From NCBI GenBank assembly GCA_000004695.1, contig CM000151.3, positions 2,912,001 through 2,976,000 on the forward strand: a DNA stretch of 64,000 nt, read 5' to 3'. The notes under the pieces were generated by a model, which saw nothing but the letters and a program-made list of their open reading frames with translations, was not told where the DNA came from and did no database searches. Within the stretch, counting starts at the first letter, position 1. Each line of letters begins with the position of its first letter. Positions 14,565-51,492 of this stretch are shown here, piece by piece. This DNA comes from Dictyostelium discoideum (lineage: Eukaryota). A program made the position numbers and the translations under genes.

Positions 14565-15414
14565 TTAAATACGAATTTTTTCATTATTTAATTCTTGTTG
14601 AGTAGCATCAATACTATTGCTATTATTATTATTAACAGGGTTACTTGAATTATTGTTATTATTATTATTATTTGTATTATTATTATTATTATTAATTGTA
14701 TTTTTATTTTCATTTATTGTAGATGATGAACGATTTTCTTCAATATATTTACAGATTTGAGTATTTATTACTTCATATAATAACTTTGGGTTAATTGGTT
14801 TTGTTACATAATCATCAACACCAGATTCTAAAAACTTTTCTTTATCACCTTTCATTGCATGAGCAGTTACAGCAATGATTGGAATATGACCACCTTCATT
14901 TGCTTCGATTTCACGAATTGCACAAGTTGCTTCTAAACCTGATAAAATTGGCATTTGAATATCCATTAATATACAATCATAAAGTATTGATTTATTTTTA
15001 CTTTCATGATAGAAATCTAAGGCTTGTTTACCATCTTTTGCAATGGTAATATCAAAACCTCTTTTAGTTAATAATGTCTTTATTAATTTTTGATTCATTG
15101 TATTATCTTCTGCTACCAATACTTTTTGTGGAATCATTTGACTACCACTAATTTCAATTCCACCGCTGCTTGTACCATTACTACTTAATAAATTAATATT
15201 ACCACTATTTCCTGATAAAATTGGTGGTGATTGGAATTGTGGTGTAGTAATTGTTGATGATGGTTGTGGTGGTGTTGTTACTCCTACTATTGTAGTTAAA
15301 CTACAATTATTATTATTATTGCTTCTTGGTGAACTAATTGGTGGTGATGTTTCAGGTGTTGAATTTGATGATTTTGATGGATCAGATGTATGATTATTAC
15401 TTGTATTTGTAGTG

Positions 15415-15503
<89 letters not shown>

Positions 15504-18455
15504 TAAAATTAAATTATTTGAATGAACAGTAGTATTATTATGTTGTTGAGATTGTTGTTGATGAATATGATGATGATGAATATGATGAAGATTTGTACTA
15601 CTTAAATTGGATTTATGTGGTGACATTCTTCCACTCAATTGTTCTAATTGTTGTTGTTGTTGTTGCTGTTGTTGTTGCTGTTTTGGTGAATATTGTTTTG
15701 GTGAATATTGTTGTTTTGGTGAATATTGTTTTGGAGAGTATTGCTGTTTTGGTGAATAACCACGTTGTGATTGTTTTGGTGATGAAGCAGATTGTAAACT
15801 TAATAATGGAACTATAACTATTTTTTTACCATTTGGAGTAACTGGATTATTATTTATAATTGTTATACTATTACCATTATTAATAATATTTGAACTGCTT
15901 TGAGTTACATTTGTTGAGGTTGAATTTGAAGAATTTGGTGTTAAACTATTAATATTATTTAAATCAGAGATATCAATTGAGTTATCTTTTAATGGTAAAA
16001 TTGGTGATAAAATTGGTTGTGTTTGTTGTTGTTGATTATTATTATTAACATTATTTGATGATATTGAAACTGGTGATGGTGTATTTGAAGATGTTAATGG
16101 AGTTGAGGATAATGAAGATGATGAAGGAGTTGAATTATTTGCACTACTATTACCACTATTGCTACCATTTGTACTGCTACCACCCCCACTACTACTACTA
16201 CTGTTGATAGGTGGTGAACTATAACCAACACCACCTCTAGGGGTACTAATTAAATTTGAATAATTTTTACCACCGTGACTTAAACTACGACCAGGTGATT
16301 TTGGTGGTGAATAAGCTGGTAAATTATTTAAACCACATTCTTTGGAAATTGGACCACGTGGTGTACAAATTGAATGAATTCTTTGAATTAAATCCATTGG
16401 ACAACTATGTTGTTTTTTAACATTTTTAGTTGAAGGTGTTGAAATTAAACTTGAACCACGACTATTATTTAAACCATTTGGAGTTTGAATATTATTATTA
16501 CTATTATTTAAACTTATACCACTATTATTATTTCCATTGGTATTATTATTTCCATTAGTATTACCAATTATATTATTAAGATTATTTGGATTATTTGATA
16601 AATTACTAAGATTATTTAAACCACTAATATTTAAATTTGAAATACCATTAAAACCAGTTGGACTTGAACTAAGAGTATTATGACTTGAAGATTTTAATGA
16701 TGTATTATTTAAAGAGGCAATGAAATTATAATAACTATTTGATGGTGTACGACTTGTTAATGGACCATTATCATTTGAATTATTATTATTATTAATACTA
16801 TTATTATTATTTAATGTACTACCATTGATATTTATATTATTCATACTATTACTTAAAGAAATACCATAATTTGTTGAATCGTTATTACCATTATCATTTG
16901 AATCTTTTTTCACTTTTTTAGTTTGAACATTTGGAAGTGATGGAATATAAATTTCATTTTTTAATCTACTAGATTCAAATAATTTAGTGGTTGAATTGAT
17001 TGAACCATTACTTGATTGTAATGAAGGTGATTTTGGTGATGGTGCTTCAACACTTTTAATTGAGAGAATGAAATGAAAAGTTGAACCTTGTGATGCTTCA
17101 CTTTCAAACCAAATTGCACCACCAAAGAATTCAATTAACTTTTTGCAAATACTTAAACCTAAACCAACACCACCTTGAACACGACTATATGAACCATCAA
17201 CTTGAAAGAATCTATCGAAAATGAAATCATGTTTATCCTCTGGTACACCAATACCACGATCTTTAATTGAAAATTTTAGATTAACAAACCCTTCACGATC
17301 TTTTTTTTTAAATTTTTCACGTTTATTAATACCACCTCCACCACCACCACTGGTATTATTATGAAATAATAAATTATTACTTATATTATTTCTTGAAGTG
17401 TTTGATGATGTATCGTCGTCGGTATCATCATCATTTTCATCAGTTTCATCATTTTCATCATCATTTTCATCATCATCATCACTATTATCTTTTTCATCTA
17501 ATTCACTAAAACCACCAACAGCTGATTCATTATCTGAAACATTAATATCTCTACCAAAATAAGAATCATTATTATCTTGATCATCATAATCACCATCGAT
17601 ACTATAATCATCATGTGAATTTAATCTACTATGAGTCTTTGAATTTGATCTAAAAGAGTCTTTATATTTTTTAAATTGATTATGAGTTAATTGTTCAACA
17701 ATGATTGAAATTGAATTATTTATATTTGAAGAATTTGAAAATTTTATTGCATTATCAATTAGATTTGAAAGGATTTGTTTTAAACGATTTTGATCACCAT
17801 AGAAATCATCGGCAATATTTGGATCGATTGAAAAGGTTAAACTAATCTTCTTTTCAATGATACGTGTATAGAAAACTTTAAATAATTGATTGAATGTATC
17901 ACGTAACTTGAATGGGAAAGGTCTAACTGCCAATGAATTTGATTCCAATGTTGTGAAATCTAAAATTTGGTGAAGTAAATCCAATAGAATCTTTGACGAC
18001 TCCACAACATCATTTAACATTTCCTTTAGATTCCTTGGTGCAACATCTAAACATAAACCAACCATACCAATGATTGAATTCATTGGACTCAATAATTCAT
18101 GACTAATATTTGCCAAAAATTCACCTTTTAATTGATTAGCCCTTTGTGCCTCCTCTGTTGCATTCTTTAGTATAACTTCATTACGTTTTCTTTCAGTAAT
18201 ATCATGTAAGGCTACAAATGCACCAATGGTTTTACCATCTTTTGAAACAATCTCTTGACCACTTGCCAAAACTAAAAATTCATTATCATTTATCTTTGTT
18301 GGAATTTTAGTTGCAATTGGTATTTGTTGTGGTGATGTTATTGTTGCTGCTGCTGCTGTTGTTGATGTTGTTGCACCACCTATTCCATTTGTTGTATTTT
18401 GTTGTTGTTGTGTTTGTTGTGTTGATACTTGTGTTTGTTGTTGTTGTGAAATTGA

Positions 18456-18519
<64 letters not shown>

Positions 18520-19880
18520 GTTGTTGTTGTTGTTGTACTATAATTTTTTGATAATCTATTTTGTGATTTATTACCATTTGAACAATTTGATTGTGATCTT
18601 GGTCTATTTGATTTTGATAATGATGATTGTTGTTGATTTGAAGTTGGAGTAATTATAATTTCTTGATCATTTATAAATTCACCACTTAATGCTCTAATAA
18701 TTGGTGTACCTGATTTTTCTAAATTTATTTGTTCATATGGTGATCTATAACATTTTAAAATTTGATCTAATAATTGTTTTCTATCGGTTTTATCGTTCAA
18801 TTCTAATCCATGTAAATCTTGTGCACTCTTATTGAAATGTGTTAAATCACCATTTGAATTACATGCAACAATGCCTGCTTTTAAACAACCAATTAATGCT
18901 TCAACAAATTTACTCTCTTCTTCTAATTTATCTTTTGCTTCTTGAATTTCACTAAAATCATGACAAACTCCTAAAACTTTAAAAACTTTATCATCTTTTT
19001 TAATAATTTCACCTCTTTTTTTTTTCATTGAAAAAAAAAAAAAAAAATAAAAAAAAAAGTTTGGAAATTAATAAATAATTAATAAAAATGATAATTATAA
19101 TAATAATAATAATACAAACTTTAATTGAATATATCTAACTAAATTATCATTTTTTCTATTAATTCTTAATGGATATTCAAATGAAGAACTATTTGATTCT
19201 ATACAATTATTAATTATTGGTTGAATTTCTTGAATACCAAGTTTATTAATAAAATCATTAAAATTCAATTTTTTATTAAAATCATTTTCAATACCAATTA
19301 TTTTATAAAATTGATTAGATGCTTTAGTTGTATCATTTTGAACATTCCATTCCCAAGATCCCATGTTTGATGGTTCTGGTCTATTATATTGTCCTTTATT
19401 ACTACTATTAATATTTACAGAATTTTGATTATTTTGATTATTATTTATATTATGATTTTCAATTGATGATGATAATGGTGATTGAATAAATTTAATTTCT
19501 TCAATTGCTTCTACTAATATAAAAATTCGTTTACCTTCGTAATCTAAATAATGACTATCTTGATTTACTAATAAATTAATACTAGTATCCAAATATAATT
19601 GTCTTGCATCCATATCACTAATATGTATTGATGAATATTTAAATATCATTTGTTTTAAAATCTCTCCATTTTCGTTGGATTCTATTATATCGATGTGTTC
19701 ATGTTTTGATTTACCATTTCTAATATCATTTATTAAATTTGAATTATTAAATAATGATGTTATTGATTCAATATTTTTATATTTTTTACATGATTGATTA
19801 CCCCAAATCAATACTCTTTTATTTATATCGAATAACCAAATTGCTTGATTTAATTTTTCTAATATTTTTAAATAAATCAT
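14565..19880 (-). CDS. Hybrid sensor histidine kinase (dhk family): PAS/PAC regions, HisKA, HATPase_c and a C-terminal receiver domain. Two exons: 19120-19880 and 14565-19014; about 1736 aa.
   Basis: H-box FLANISHELLSPMNSIIGMVGL. ATPase N/G boxes LSNLIDNAIKFS...DRGIGVPEDKHDFIFDRFFQVDGSYSRVQGGVGLGLSICKKL. Receiver KVLVAEDNTMNQKLIKTLL...ILMDIQMPILSGLEATCAIRE...PIIAVTAHAMKGDKEKFLESGVDDYVTKPI. The intron is TTA AA|GTTTGT...AG|A GGT in phase 2. The ATG at 19878-19880 opens a PAS-like exon (MIYLKILEKLNQAIWLFDINKRVLIWGN...). Long poly-Asn/Gln/Ser linkers are present. Confidence 0.85.
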
Positions 19881-28320: not shown

Positions 28321-28384
28321 ATGATGATGGATTGCTTCTCAACACCAGTCCAAAGAAATAATAACATTAATAATAATAATAACA

Positions 28385-28419
<35 letters not shown>

Positions 28420-29173
28420 TGTACAATTAGTACTAGTGGTAGTAGTAGTAGTAGTAGTGGTGGTGGTGAAATTAATTGTAATAAAAATGAAAAAGAAGTT
28501 ATTGTTAAAGTATTAAAGAATGGATTAATAGAGAGTAATTCATTATTTAAAGTATATAGATTTGAAAAGAATATGTGTGACGGTGGAGGATTTGTATTGA
28601 ATAGATTAATAGGTGGTGATAAAGAGTTACAACATATTGATCCATTTGTATTGTTGGATGAAATTAATACCAATTCACCTCAAGAATATGAAAAAGGATT
28701 CCCAGATCATCCACATCGTGGTATTCAATTGGTGACATATATGTTGGAAGGTTTGATGGTACATAATGATTCGTTAGGTAATAAAGTTGTATTAAAGACA
28801 GGTGATCTTCAATGGATACTATCGGGTAAAGGTATAGTACATAGTGAGATGCCATCCTCGACAACCTCTAAACTTTGGGTCATTCATTATTGGTTAAATT
28901 TACCAAAACAATTGAAAATGGTTGAACCAGATTACCAATATGTATCGAATGAATCAATTCCATTAATTCAACGTACAAATGGTAATACTGATTTCATGAT
29001 TAAAGTTATCTCTGGTCAATATTTAGATAATGAAACAAAGATATTACATAAAAGTCCTTTAAAAAGTTTAGGTTTAAATCCTCAAGTTTTAGATATTGAT
29101 ATAAAATTAAATACTGATAATAATAATAATAACAATCAACTTATAAGTGCAGATAATGGTGATAATGGTGGTG

Positions 29174-29240
<67 letters not shown>

Positions 29241-29424
29241 TACTAATGATAATAATGGTGAAAATAATGAAGAATATACTTGTAAAAAAGAATCTACTAC
29301 TCCATTTGAAATTGATATAAATGAAACATTTGGTTCATTTTTATTGGTTTTAGATGGTCCAGTTTCAATAAATAATTCAAAACCTATTGGTCCTGGAAAA
29401 CTTATTGTATTTAATAGAAAATCA

Positions 29425-29457
<33 letters not shown>

Positions 29458-29691
29458 TGTACAAATAATAATAGTAATATAAATAATAATAGTGGTGGTA
29501 GTGATAATATAGATATAGATAATGAAAATTGTACCTTTAATAGAGTTTCAATAACATCTAAATCAAATTCAAGACTTTTATTCTTTTCATCAAAACAAAT
29601 TCAAGAACCAATATTTAAATATGGACCATTTGTAATGAGTGATATGAATGATATTCATCAATGTTTCATTGATTTTGAATATGGTCTTTAA
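28321..29691 (+). CDS. Pirin-family bicupin protein. Single exon with Asn-rich insertions.
   Basis: Pirin N-terminal cupin signature GFPDHPHRGIQLVTYMLEGLMVHNDSLGNKVVLKTGDLQWILSGKGIVHSE; a second cupin half is in the C-terminus (GPFVMSDMNDIHQCFIDFEYG). Confidence 0.8.
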
Positions 29692-31448: not shown

Positions 31449-33021
31449 ATGGCAGGGTCAATGAAAAATTTATTGGGATCATTGCAAACTAGTTTAAATT
31501 CCAAACCATATTCTCTTGGTAAATCATTTATAAAAGTTTTTAGAAAAAGTAATGGATTTTGTGATTTTGATTTCACATTAAAAGATGGTTCAGCCAAAGG
31601 TATAGCTTTAATTGATACAAACTTTGAACCCCCTATTAGAATCATGAACTATTGTAATGAAATATTTTCAAGAGATTATATTAAGTATGTTAAAAATCAT
31701 CAATAATATTATTTTCACAATTATATCTTATACTAATTTTTTTTTTTTTTTTTTTTTTTTTAAAACAAAAATAGAAATTCATTAAAAAAAGCGATGGAAC
31801 TTAGAGAAAAACTTTCAAATGATAAAATTATTGATATTGGACCAAAGTCAGCATATAGATTAGTTAATGATGGTTCAGATGGTTTATCAGGATTAACAGT
31901 TGATGTTTTTGCTGATTATTTACAAATTACTGTAATTATTATTATTATTTCCTATTTTTTTTTTTTTTAATTTATTTTATATACATATATTAATACAAAT
32001 TTATTAGACACTTTCAGATCATTGGCATCCTCATGTTAGATATATATCAGAATATTTATTAAATGAAACTGGTAAAAAAGGAATATATTGGAAAATTAGT
32101 ACAAAAGATCAACAAATGTCTAAACTTTATTTAGGAAAAGGTTATGAATTAGATGAAGCCAATCAAACAACATTGATAATTGAAGAGAATGGTATGAAAT
32201 CTTATATAGATTTATTGGATTTAAAATCAACAGGATTTTATTTAGAACATAGAGATAATAGACAAATTATATCAAACCTTTTCAAAGGTAGAAATGGTGG
32301 TTCAATTCTAAATTTATTTGCACATACTTGTTCATTTTCAATTGCACCTTGTGTCAATGGTCATAAAATTCAAACTTATAATATTGATGAGTCAATTAAA
32401 AACTTTAAATTTGCAGATAGAAATTTTAAATTGAATGGTTTAGATACAAATTATCATAAATTCTCTCAAAAAGATGTTTTCACACAATTGGATTATTTAA
32501 AATCTAAATCCACAAGATTTGATGTAATCGTTTTGGATCCACCACCTCGTACAAAAGGTAATGGTTTTGGTATATTTACAAGTAAAGATTGTTATAGAGA
32601 TTTATTACAATTGGCAATACCATTATTAAATCCTGGTGGTTTCATTGCTTCTTTTGTAAATACTCAATCAATATCTGAATCAAAATGGTTAAGACAAATT
32701 GGTGTTAAAAATGATTTAGAAATTAATGAAAATCATTCAAAAAAACAAATTACAATACCAACTGATGATAATAATAATAATGATGATTTAAATGAAATTT
32801 CACAATTAAATATTAAAGAAGCACAATTTTCAAATTTTACTAAAAATGTATCACCATTTATCAAATTACCTAAATTTAAAGCAGTTCAATATTTTGATCA
32901 ATCTCAAGATTTTAATGTAAGAAAAGGTGATGAAAATATTGCACAACAATTAAAAGGTGTATTGTTAAAGAATAAGGTTGACTATTCAAAAACTAAATAT
33001 TATTCAAGTAAACAAGATTAG
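31449..33021 (+). CDS. Class I SAM-dependent RNA methyltransferase of the bacterial RlmI/YccW (23S rRNA m5C1962) type. Three exons: 31449-31684, 31775-31931, 32008-33021.
   Basis: Close pattern match to E. coli RlmI. SAYRLVNDGSDGLSGLTVDVFADYLQ parallels [56 protein letters not shown] parallels [75 protein letters not shown]...[12 protein letters not shown] parallels [29 protein letters not shown]...FDVIVMDPPKF. Introns are AA|GTATGT...ATAG|A and ACT|GTAATT...TTAG|ACA, both in phase. Confidence 0.7.
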
Positions 33022-39457: not shown

Positions 39458-41000
39458 ATGATACGATTAGTATATAATAATTTTCGAAAACTTCCAAAAA
39501 CGCTTTTAATACCATCATTCCAAAAACAACCACATCCCATACATTTTAATTTCAACAAAAAACATTTTTTTACTACTATTAATAATAATAATACCAATGA
39601 AACAATATTAACAACTGAAAATACCCCCACCAATTTAACCCCAAATAATAATAATAAAATAATAATTAAAAATACTGAAGATGAAATTAAAGAAACAATA
39701 TTTTCTGTTCAAAGGTTTTTATTTATTTATTTATTATTTTTTTTTAGAAAATAATATTAATAATTTTCTTTTTTCTTTTTTCTTTTTATTTTTTTTTTTT
39801 TATTTTTTTTTACTTTTAATAATAAAGGGAATTAAATATTATAGAATTAAATGATTGGTATAATGTTAATATTACAAAAATATTTTCAGAGAATAAAGAA
39901 CTTAAAAATAGTGAAATTAGTAAACCAATTTTAAAATTACAACAAATATTTAGAGATAATTTTGAATATTCATTTTATGAGATGTTAAAATTTGCATACC
40001 CTAAAGAAGAATGGGATAGAGTTAAATTGGTAAAATCAATTGATAGGAATAAATATTTTTGGTTAAATCAAGATAATATTGATTCTTTTATTCAATCTTT
40101 TACAACTGATATGAAATTCGATCAAACTCATCGTAAATTTGATAGGTTTCGATATAGTGATGAAAATGAAACTGATAATGAATATCTTAAACAATGGTAT
40201 AAAGTTCAAAAAAATGATTTTATAAAATTTAAAGGTCGTCCAATAATTGCACAATTTAATGATTCAATTTATGGTTTTCTTTGTAGTTATTATCCAAATT
40301 ATAATTTTAAACCTTGGTTATTTACATCAGCTCCAAGGTATACCTTATTTATTATTAATTTATTATTAATTAATTATTTATTAATTTATTAATTATTTAT
40401 TAATTTTTTTATTATTATTTTTTATTATTTATTAGAAATTTTTGGAAACCAATTGAAAATCAAAAACAATATTTACAATGGTTAGGTAAACAAATAGGAT
40501 TCACAGAATATAACCATTGGTATGGTATTGGTAAAAATGATTTTGTTAAAAATAATGGATCATCTTTATTATTATTATATAATGGATCACCAGCAAAAGT
40601 GATTATAGAAGTTTTTAAAGATGATTATGATTGGAAAGTTTGGAAATTTAATAATTTACCAATATTAAATGATAATAAAAATAATGTTGATAATAATAAT
40701 GATAATAATAAAAATAATAAAATTGAAGAAATTAAAGATGAATTAAAAACTTTAAGAGAATTTTTTAAATTTGCAGGAGAATATTATAATATTTTAGATA
40801 TTAAAGATTGGTATAGAGTTTCAAATTCACAAATTCAATATATTGGTGGATCACAACTTGTTAAAAAACATGGTGGATTATTTAATTGTTTAGAGATTTT
40901 ATATCCAGAAGAGAAATGGGATTATCATATTTATTCACAACCTGGTAAAAAATCATCACAACGTTTATTATCAATTTATTTAAATCATTTATTTATTCAA

Positions 41001-41035
<35 letters not shown>

Positions 41036-41407
41036 TAATAATAATATTGAAATATTTGAAGATTATAGACATCCAAATTTAAAATATCAACAATTAAGTA
41101 ATCATTCATTTCATTTAGATTTTTTTATACCTCAATTATCATTAGCATTTGAATATCAAGGTAAACAACATTATATGGATGTTCCACGTTTTGGTGATTC
41201 TACAATATATCAAAATCGTGATAATGAAAAAAGATTAATTTGTAAGAATAATAATATCACAATCATTGAAATTCCATTTTGGTGGGATAATCAAATTGAA
41301 TCTTTAATTGGTACAATTATCACTGAATTACCAAATTTAAAAGATCAATTATTAATAAATTATAAAAATTATTTATTAAATTATAAAAAAAATAATAATC
41401 AAATTAT

Positions 41408-41438
<31 letters not shown>

Positions 41439-41693
41439 CAAATTATTAATAATAAAAATGATAATAATAATAATAATAATAATAATGGTGATAATGGTGA
41501 TAATGGTGATAATAATAAAAATAAAAATAATAATAATAATAATAATTTAAAAAATATTAATGATAATAATAATAATAATGATAATAATAATAAAAATGGT
41601 AATAATAATCAAATTGATTTTGACACTTTTTTACCAATATCAAAAACACCACAAAAGGTTAGTAATCGTAAAAGACTTTTCAATAAAGAATGA
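39458..41693 (+). CDS. RAP-domain (PD-(D/E)xK, Vsr-like) protein with three upstream tandem ~55-aa repeats and a basic N-terminal presequence; probably an organellar RNA-binding protein. Three exons: 39458-39714, 39828-40337, 40434-41693.
   Basis: C-terminal block HLDFFIPQLSLAFEYQGKQHYMDVPRFGDSTIYQNRDNEKRLICKNNNITIIEIPFWWDNQ fits the RAP/DUF559-type module (..DF..P...L.IE.DG..H.......D..R...L...G..V..IP..EW). Repeats: NDWYNVNITKIF...FAYPKEEWDRVKL; NHWYGIGKNDFVKNNGSSLLLLYNGSPAKVIIEVFKDDYDWKVWKF; KDWYRVSNSQIQYIGGSQLVKKHGGLFNCLEILYPEEKWDYHIYS. The N-terminus MIRLVYNNFRKLPKTLLIPSFQKQPHPIHF is basic and lacks acidic residues. Introns are in phase. Confidence 0.6.
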
Positions 41694-43220: not shown

Positions 43221-47208
<3,988 letters not shown>

Positions 47209-49761: not shown

Positions 49762-50361
49762 TTAAATATAAATAGGATGATAAGGTTTTTTTCCATGCAA
49801 TTTTGCATTGCAGACCGGACAGCTTTTTTTCTTTTTTAAGGCATTGACGATACAATCAGAGCAAAATATATGCCCACAAAGAGTTGAGACATATGGCTTT
49901 GTATCTTCAAAACAAATTGGACATTCCAAATTTTTTGATTTTTTATCACCGCCATTGGATTGCGTATCAATTGCTTTCTTTGATTCATTTTCTTTTTCCA
50001 TTTCTTTTTGAAGTTTCCAAAGTTCTGAATTTTCAGATATCGAGGATAATGATGAGTTACCTTGTTTTTCGAGTATATGAATTACCTCTGGTTTAGTTGT
50101 TTGGATGGATGCTGTTGCAGTAGTGTTGTTGTTATTGCTATTATTGTTATTTCTGACAGCTGAACGATTTGTGCCAACCAAAGATTGACGATTTGTTGGT
50201 CTAAAAAATGAGTCGTCGCTTGAGTCACTATTGCGGTCCCTACCACCAAACCCAAAACTAATGTCAATATTTTCATCAAAAAGATCCTCTGGACTAATTG
50301 GGAATTGATTTCTACGATCAAAGTGAACATCATCATCATCATCGTCTTCATCATCATCGTC

Positions 50362-50394
<33 letters not shown>

Positions 50395-51492
50395 GTCATC
50401 GTCGGTATCAAAATTATGATAATGTTTTCTCTTTTTTAAACTATTACCACCATTACCATTATTACCAATAGGGCCATTTCCTACAGCACTACCACTATGA
50501 TTATTAAAAATGTTTAATACTATTGGAAATTGTTGTTGAGATGGTGGTGGTGGTGGCTGATGTTGTGTTCTAGAATTAAAGAAACTATTATTTCTAAAAA
50601 AAGTAAAGTCATTCGCTTGTCTATTAAGGAATCTATTATTACTATTATTATTACTATTATTATTTCTATCATTATTATGATTATTATTATTATTAGCTAA
50701 ACGTGTTGCTGTCAGTACTAAAACTGGTGATTGTGGTGGAGAAAGAGTAAGATCCACAACTCTGTCATATAAAAAAAAAAAAAAAATTAATAAATCAATG
50801 TCAACAAAAACCGTGGTGTATATTATAACTTACTCTTTATCTTGATTGTTGTTTTGGTTATTTACATTTGTGGTGGTGGTAGTGGTAGTTGTGGAAGTTT
50901 CAGTAGTTTCAGTATTTGAAATAGGTGTGGGTTTATCATTATCATTTTCACCATCATCATCTTCATCATCTTCATCATCATCACTCAAATCTATAATAAC
51001 TACCTGTCTACTTGATTGGCGTTGATTCTGTTTTTCACCCTCTTTTTTGATATTAAGGTCTATTTGTTGTGATTGTTGTGATTGTTGTGATTGTTGTGAT
51101 TGTTGTGATTGTTGTTCCTCTTCTTTATTTTGTTCTCCATTTTGTTGTTCATTTTCTTCATTATGTTGTTCATTTTCTCTATTTTCTTGTTTCTCCTCTA
51201 CATTTTGCTTCACCTCTTCATTTTGTTTCTCCTCTTCATTTTGTTTCACCTCTTCATTTTGTTTCTCCTCTTCATTTTTTTTCTCCTCTTCATTTTGTTG
51301 TATTGGGTTCTTCACACCAAATGCGAAATCCTCTTGTGGGTTTTCATGTTGAACTAATTGAGAGGTACCATGAGCAATTGTTTTATTTTTATCATCTTTT
51401 TGTTGCTTATTTTCTTCATCTATCTGCCTATCCATCAATTCAAATATATCATTTAAAATTTCGGGTATATCTTGTGATGTTTGGCTGTCCAT
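49762..51492 (-). CDS. RNF4-like SUMO-targeted ubiquitin ligase (STUbL): N-terminal SUMO-interaction motifs with acidic runs, C-terminal C3HC4 RING. Two exons: 50834-51492 and 49762-50761.
   Basis: RING finger at the extreme C-terminus, ECPICFEDTKPYVSTLCGHIFCSDCIVNALKKKKSCPVCNAKLHGKKPYHPIYI*, ends in the same HPIYI tail as metazoan RNF4. SIM-like hydrophobic cores sit next to acidic stretches: VVIIDLSDDDEDDEDDD, PVLVLTAT, FPIVLNIF, EVIHILEK plus a D20 run. The intron GA|GTAAGT...ACAG|A is in phase 2. Confidence 0.7.

Follow-up and report, generated by a model that had tools for sequence, protein, structure and literature searches.

We analysed a 64,000-nt stretch of Dictyostelium discoideum DNA (GenBank assembly GCA_000004695.1, contig CM000151.3, positions 2,912,001 to 2,976,000 of the forward strand; the whole stretch is called the window and its own coordinates are used throughout) with respect to a gene at positions 39458 to 41693, which encodes a protein with tandem helical repeats and a predicted C-terminal nuclease domain. 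The DNA is AT-rich, with Asn-rich runs in the coding sequence. As proposed in the initial annotation of this stretch, the gene consists of three exons: only one in-frame GT-AG combination was found for the span from the start codon at 39458, which is the first ATG to follow a stop codon, to the stop codon ending at 41693. It encodes 674 aa. The GT donor of exon 1 is located at 39715, and retention of intron 1 would lead to a stop codon (open reading frame (ORF) 39458-39754). The features are listed in Table 1.

The top protein match was the D. citrinum orthologue with 86% identity, the N-terminus of which begins MIRLIYN. Four further dictyostelid orthologues showed 43-46% identity (BLAST), or 37% for Heterostelium album, and the protein search gave one match per species in each of five dictyostelids. 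The predicted protein was colinear with the dictyostelid orthologues across both exon junctions (SVQ/R/ELN and SAP/R/NFWKP), so that the splice junctions are supported in silico and we take the three-exon gene to be real. The gene is nuclear and single-copy in Dictyostelium, and the same architecture is kept in the orthologues.

Table 1. Predicted gene and protein features in window coordinates.
Feature	Position	Strand	Description
Exon 1	39458..39714	+	aa 1-85 and 2 nt of codon 86; presequence-like N-terminus, start of repeat 1
Intron 1	39715..39827	+	113 nt, GT...AG, AT-rich
Exon 2	39828..40337	+	aa 86-256; remainder of repeat 1 and whole repeat 2
Intron 2	40338..40435	+	98 nt, GT...AG
Exon 3	40436..41693	+	aa 256-674 and stop; repeats 3-4, nuclease domain, Asn-rich tail, basic C-terminus
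Putative mitochondrial presequence	39458..39598	+	aa 1-47; no D/E, 7 K/R, net charge +7
Repeat 1	39671..40038	+	aa 72-156, across intron 1; NDWYNV...YPKEEWD; hidden Markov model (HMM) E 1.3e-4
Repeat 2	40063..40335	+	aa ~165-255; YFWLNQDNIDSFIQSF..., insert of ~20 aa, then KQWYKV...YYPNYNFKPWLF
Repeat 3	40437..40661	+	aa 257-331, canonical copy; NFWKPIENQKQYLQWLGKQIGFTEYNHWYGI...NGSSLLLLYNGS...DWKVWKF; HMM E 1e-20
Repeat 4	40737..40943	+	aa 357-425; KDWYRV...GGSQL...YPEEKWD; HMM E 8e-12
Predicted Vsr/EDxHD-type PD-(D/E)xK nuclease domain	40941..41336	+	aa 425-556; conserved Q431, D484, E495-Y-Q497-G, H501, D518, K521, P536, W538, W539
Asn-rich low-complexity insert	41376..41600	+	aa ~570-644; typical of Dictyostelium coding sequence
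Conserved basic C-terminal tail and stop	41601..41693	+	NNNQIDFDTFLPISKTPQKVSNRKRLFNKE

Nuclease domain and active site

The C-terminal part of the protein, in which the peptide quoted in the initial annotation was located at aa 482-541 (HLDFFIPQLSLAFEYQGKQHY...IEIPFWWDNQ), is predicted to adopt a Vsr-like PD-(D/E)xK fold, in agreement with that annotation. The list of structural neighbours was headed by a Toxoplasma gondii mitoribosomal RAP protein (9.4), followed by the catalytic domain of the homing endonuclease I-Bth0305I (9.1), the DUF559 protein NGO0050 (9.0), Escherichia coli Vsr (9.0), FASTKD4 (8.6) and Tetrahymena mL104 (8.4). Foldseek also ranked Toxoplasma mitoribosome chains at the top, at a non-significant E of ~0.03. 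The fold by itself bears out the Vsr-like PD-(D/E)xK type but does not show the branch, which can be read from the sequence.

The whole window protein had no match in Pfam even at E<=10; single-sequence, whole-protein matches in Pfam, NCBIfam and PDB were discarded as products of Asn low complexity and a chance Avd match. With the isolated domain, DUF2726 (PF10881, PD-(D/E)xK clan) was the only Pfam family found (15.0 bits, E 0.021). The score lies under the gathering cut-off of 24.7 bits, and the window protein is therefore regarded as an outlying relative and not a formal member. DUF2726 was nevertheless the sole Pfam family matched consistently, by 9 of the 17 family members and 100 of 119 domain relatives (E<=1; best E 1e-6), and one relative, P0027, passed the cut-off with 28.6 bits. 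The DUF2726 model presumably has E-x-D where the window family has E-Y-(Q/H/N).

The initial annotation had placed the domain in the RAP family (PF08373). This placement was not borne out by sequence comparison. RAP was matched neither by the window protein nor by any of the 17 family domains at E<=10, and weakly by only 2 of the 119 domain relatives (best E 6e-4). Comparison of the family with real RAP segments from PDB entries by hhalign gave a probability of 12.7%. A hand-written RAP-like consensus picked out eight PDB chains (FASTKD4 and seven RAP chains of T. gondii); none of the PDB RAP chains was found with the family profiles. Neither the family profile nor the viral-domain profile had a real match in PDB, including the sequence of 3R3P. 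The phage families gave clear similarity: the window domain matched phrog_559 (labelled HNH endonuclease, E 1.9e-13), phrog_9084 (labelled 'homing endonuclease', E 6.8e-13) and phrog_7140 (labelled 'intron encoded nuclease', E 1.4e-6), these annotations being database labels and not tested functions. When eukaryotic domains were compared with viral domains from zinc-ribbon nucleases, hhalign gave a probability of 99.7% (E 1e-26). Vsr, DUF559 and DUF2726 were grouped together and RAP was listed separately by Steczkiewicz et al. 2012 (PMC3424549), where DUF2726 is given as bacterial and of unknown function. Judged by sequence, the nuclease is a distant cousin of RAP, not a RAP domain, with kinship of the EDxHD/Vsr type. 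It has the fold and homology of EDxHD nucleases without the genomic context of homing (an intron, an intein or a mobile element), because the gene is nuclear, has two spliceosomal introns and ordinary neighbours, and gives one match per dictyostelid species.

Searches with the nuclease-domain profile recovered 32,900 cluster representatives at E<=1e-3, 5,274 at E<=1e-10 and 223 at E<=1e-30. Related viral loci in IMG/VR numbered 476, and in the viral ORFs inspected the nuclease domain was located C-terminal to arrays of zinc-ribbon modules. The exact motif AxEYQG[KES][QH]H[YF] was present at 209 loci in diverse bacteria and archaea, including Promethearchaeota, Micrarchaeota, Blautia and Kuenenia. 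The domain is spread patchily, much as a nuclease carried by mobile elements would be expected to be.

Twelve residues (D484, A493, E495, Y496, Q497, G498, H501, D518, K521, P536, W538 and W539) were invariant in the 17 family members. In 139 more distant relatives the D, E, G and H were still invariant and the other positions were conserved to about 90% or more; the third position of the motif was Q in 111 relatives, H in 18 and N in 7. Taylor et al. 2011 (PMC3239194) reported as equivalent pairs in I-Bth0305I and Vsr D196/D51, N208/H64, H213/H69, D222/D97 and the helix-1 pair E170/E25, and I-Bth0305I has an acidic residue at the position of Vsr F62 (PMC3239194). Assigned by motif order and spacing, D484, E495, Q497, H501 and D518 fit this set. 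We propose D484 as a metal ligand (Vsr D51) and H501 as the general base (Vsr H69); Q497 would correspond to Vsr H64 and I-Bth0305I N208, and D518 to Vsr D97, with E495 also belonging to the set. The alternatives to Q at the third position, H and N, are the residues that Vsr and I-Bth0305I, respectively, have there. Conservation of the catalytic residues argues for an active enzyme. The WW pair after strand 4 (aa 538-539, nt 41280-41285) was invariant in the eukaryotic clade and missing from the viral clade, which had IPYWE or IPYT.

The protein may be compared with known systems. It resembles EDxHD homing endonucleases (I-Bth0305I, PDB 3R3P; phage Hef; PHROGs 559, 9084 and 7140) in its similarity to the phage families (E 2e-13), in catalytic residues that would be equivalent (D, an acidic residue, N/H/Q, H and D), and in a bipartite layout of N-terminal binding modules and a C-terminal nuclease. 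It differs from them in that its modules are four 75-aa five-helix domains rather than NUMOD/HTH modules or zinc ribbons, in the Gln that replaces the helix-1 Glu and the invariant WW after strand 4, and in being encoded by a nuclear, spliced, Dictyostelia-conserved gene outside any intron or intein, with a presequence-like N-terminus. In E. coli Vsr (PDB 1CW0, 1VSR), D51, H64, H69 and D97 would be the counterparts of D484, Q497 (H in 18 relatives), H501 and D518; however, the window protein has no zinc site, no FxHGxxWHG motif and no sequence-level match to Vsr, and it has, like I-Bth0305I, an additional acidic residue (E495) where F62 stands in Vsr, as well as large N-terminal repeats. The RAP proteins (FASTK family, OPR-RAP and apicomplexan HPR-RAP) likewise have the C-terminal domain behind helical repeats, a presequence-like N-terminus and an aromatic motif after strand 4 (IPFWW in the window protein, VPFYEW in FASTKD4). 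Besides the lack of a significant sequence match, they differ in repeats of 35-40-aa helical hairpins instead of 75-aa globular units, and in the catalytic set, which is fully conserved in the window family, reported inactive in FASTKD4 (PMC11879112) and degenerate-looking in T. gondii RAP segments.

Tandem helical modules and terminal regions

The region upstream of the nuclease had been described as three tandem repeats of about 55 aa. An HMM made solely from repeats of other proteins was run on the window protein and detected four copies (E 1e-4 to 1e-20). The repeats are thus real, but their number is four and their period ~75 aa; the second copy (KQWYKV...YYPNYNFKPWLF) had apparently been overlooked. 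The signature given earlier is present as part of a wider one, FW....NQ..F..WL...L......DWY.V....I..NGG..LL..Y..S....L...YP...W..W.F. Repeat 1 is the most degenerate of the four copies. In repeat 2 the HMM match covers aa 198-255 (E 3e-11), and the first helix, at ~aa 165 upstream of the insert, was placed by eye with the motif FW....N...F.

Repeat 3 alone, modelled by AlphaFold2 with an alignment of 62 repeats, gave five helices at a predicted local distance difference test (pLDDT) value of 94.9. The layout consists of one long helix and four short ones, then a short C-terminal turn. In a model of exon 3 (pLDDT 86.7, predicted template-modelling score 0.73) the same helix pattern occurred twice, including repeat 4. 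The two models indicate that the repeat unit is a closed small domain and not a solenoid hairpin. An alpha-solenoid, which the initial annotation had put forward for testing, was accordingly rejected, as in solenoids of the PPR, OPR, HPR, TPR and mTERF types hairpins of ~30-40 aa form a superhelix and the units here are discrete five-helix globular modules. Among 687 repeats the hydrophobic core was conserved (W28, GG40-41, LL44-45, Y48, L56, YP60-61 and W66); the polar faces of helices 2-4 were variable and rich in K/R.

No Pfam family matched more than one of the 62 repeats, which agrees with the earlier remark that they could not be assigned to a named repeat family. HTH_10 was rejected as their identity (1 of 62 repeats matched), as was DUF4046, for which a faint precomputed match was not reproduced. 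Nor were the repeats of the FAST_1/2, OPR, HPR or PPR type, the first three of which would be expected before a RAP domain. We describe the module as a domain family without a name, weakly helix-turn-helix-like. Full-text literature searches found no publication on the repeat module or on its pairing with a nuclease; neither the module nor this pairing, as seen in eukaryotes and giant viruses, seems to have been described before.

Repeats were present in 133 of the 139 closest nuclease relatives, in 1-18 copies and typically 3-9. Two nuclease motifs were found in four of these 139. Relatives with two nuclease domains per chain were seen among P0024-P0028 and P0030, and the inner copy of P0028 and P0030 has lost the EYQG..H motif. 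Three relatives, P0027, P0053 and P0061, combine repeats and nuclease with an ATP-dependent DNA ligase in one fusion protein (PF01068 above cut-off; also PF14743 in P0053). Of the three, P0053 and P0061 retain an intact ligase motif I (KxDG), which is degenerate in P0027.

The N-terminus had been described as presequence-like, and its composition agrees with this: the first 47 residues have 7 K/R and no D/E. By our arithmetic the chance of a 47-residue acid-free run is ~0.3% at a D+E content of ~11-12%. The orthologues P0002 and P0005 likewise have acid-free N-termini (61 and 46 aa), and of four full-length dictyostelid proteins that were looked at, three begin with an acid-free basic stretch of 46-61 aa. 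Dictyostelium has no plastid, and mitochondrial import is therefore the natural reading of the presequence; the window protein is probably imported into mitochondria.

At the other end, the tail that follows the Asn-rich insert (aa 645-674, 41601-41690) reads FLPISKTPQKVSNRKRLFNKE. The dictyostelid orthologues P0002-P0005 end in much the same way (PIPK.YQK...KK); examples of such tails from other dictyostelid orthologues are PIPKEYQKLSTQKKIFY, PIPKSYQKLTTNKKKYF and IPIEYQKQRTNKKVHSLL. A PCNA PIP-box in the tail was considered and rejected by eye owing to unsuitable spacing.

Candidate function and alternatives

We tentatively read the protein as a domesticated, mitochondrial, modular endonuclease directed at DNA, and give this reading a little less than an even chance. 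The four tandem ~75-aa five-helix modules would guide the protein to a specific site on a nucleic acid, and the C-terminal EDxHD/Vsr-type domain would cut or nick the site so chosen. The nuclease would be a domesticated eukaryotic branch of a domain spread patchily in phages, giant viruses, bacteria and archaea; in its viral and prokaryotic hosts the domain would sit behind zinc-ribbon arrays, with annotation as a homing endonuclease. Its substrate may be DNA, with a role in mitochondrial DNA repair, recombination or site-specific nicking. Four elements of this reading, namely import, catalysis, binding of nucleic acid by the repeats and DNA as the substrate, are ones that we infer. DNA seems more likely than RNA because characterised members of this branch cut DNA, because the viral relatives are annotated as DNA homing endonucleases, and because a DNA ligase forms part of the same chain in three relatives. 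The ligase fusion would fit nick-and-reseal repair of the very-short-patch kind, and the presence of the same repeat module on a giant-virus contig is a further hint toward DNA.

Several observations weigh against this reading. The DNA-ligase fusions are confined to distant relatives and do not occur in Dictyostelium. The repeats and the nuclease domain carry almost no net charge in the window protein (-3 to +2), an unusual property for an array that binds nucleic acid. The helix-1 Glu of Vsr, I-Bth0305I and the viral clade ('S.GE') is Gln431 in the eukaryotic clade (nt 40959-40961), a change that could alter or weaken catalysis. A simple presequence-like start was detected by a crude test in only 36 of 132 relatives.

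The architecture of the protein, a presequence, helical repeats and a C-terminal Vsr-like domain, copies that of the RAP/FASTK factors, and RAP proteins head the list of structural neighbours; a RAP-like mitochondrial RNA factor is for these reasons a serious rival, even if we think it unlikely on balance. In that case the modules would recognise a particular mitochondrial transcript, to be cleaved or held by the Vsr-like domain, by analogy with FASTKD5/FASTKD4, OPR-RAP and HPR-RAP proteins. Where repeat-plus-domain families have expanded within single protist lineages, their members usually bind RNA in organelles, and we know of no nucleases assigned to the processing of the polycistronic mitochondrial transcripts of Dictyostelium. 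RAP itself has a Vsr-like fold (PMC11879112), and its HMM was touched by the two relatives mentioned above. Against an RNA factor stand the absence of a PF08373 match and the low hhalign probability, the sequence kinship, which is overwhelmingly with DUF2726 and phage and viral DNA endonucleases, the repeats, which belong to none of the types found in such factors, and the fusions in relatives to DNA ligase and not RNA ligase. Some of the points raised against an active DNA enzyme suit instead a catalytically dead scaffold that binds nucleic acid or protein, for example an accessory of the mitoribosome or nucleoid, in the manner of FASTKD4 or of the mitoribosomal RAP proteins in T. gondii. Gln431, the near-neutral charge, the mitoribosome subunits among the structural neighbours and the reported inactivity of the Vsr-like site in FASTKD4 (PMC11879112) all agree with it. 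Yet the set of D, E-x-(Q/H/N), H and D..K is invariant or nearly so at only ~25-35% overall identity, and the T. gondii RAP segments look degenerate at the catalytic positions by contrast. A dead scaffold is the most improbable of the explanations considered.

It is also rather improbable that the protein is a non-organellar nuclease, acting in nuclear DNA repair or in defence against mobile DNA or giant viruses, or persisting as a remnant of a homing-type selfish gene. Such an origin would agree with the mobile-element-like spread in viruses, bacteria and archaea and with the repeat on a giant-virus contig. Most close relatives have no obvious presequence, and several apparently come from one uncultured eukaryote (P0008 and P0012 are both on contigs of sample ERZ25074310). 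The dictyostelid gene, however, has spliceosomal introns and ordinary chromosomal neighbours and gives one match in each of five species, its orthologues keep the architecture and the acid-free N-terminus, and no PADLOC defence model matched.

The endonuclease reading may be extended to the family as a whole. The 75-aa module may be a programmable nucleic-acid-recognition unit, and arrays of 1-18 copies joined to an EDxHD/Vsr nuclease, in some cases with a ligase, may represent a new, natural family of modular site-specific nucleases shared by eukaryotes and giant viruses, the domesticated dictyostelid member of which would cut or nick mitochondrial DNA at defined sites; we consider this extension doubtful. 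At present the nuclease belongs to a known superfamily and the finding is at the level of annotation. Should the protein prove mitochondrial and active, it would represent an organellar endonuclease that is encoded in the nucleus and combines the catalytic core of a homing endonuclease with an undescribed repeat module; to our knowledge, few of the amoebozoan enzymes that process mitochondrial DNA and RNA have been identified. The family is large (223 representatives at the strictest threshold) and has no Pfam model for its repeat. It stands between phage homing endonucleases and eukaryotic RAP, and may show how Vsr-like nucleases reached organelles. Arrays of small, well-folded modules with a compact nuclease could also interest enzyme engineers.

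The module on other contigs and neighbouring genes

The giant-virus-like contig (L004; metagenome scaffold GROS21-1...scaffold_346, 117 kb) encodes P0007, which has six repeats and a different C-terminal domain. No match to this domain was found in Pfam, PHROGs or PDB, and its likeness to Vsr (VDGF...FHGDYYHG) is one of motif only. P0007 had no close viral relative in IMG/VR. Two Bac_rhodopsin proteins, a dUTPase, a small DNA ligase and a dNK/thymidylate kinase are encoded on the same contig. Six repeats without a nuclease were found in P0006, on contig ctg89006 (L005, 269 kb), beside a gene for a 2056-aa RHS/YD-shell protein and an ArdcN gene. Judging from this setting, the repeat by itself may belong to a bacterial or conflict-system context.

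No tRNA genes were found in the window by ARAGORN. The genes near the nuclease gene are ordinary eukaryotic genes. They include ORFs for a hybrid histidine kinase (HisKA, HATPase_c and Response_reg; 14565-19028, minus strand), a pirin (28321-29691, plus strand), an S-adenosylmethionine (SAM)-dependent methyltransferase (32116-33021, plus strand), an M1 aminopeptidase (45024-46436, plus strand) and a RING-finger protein (49762-50757, minus strand).

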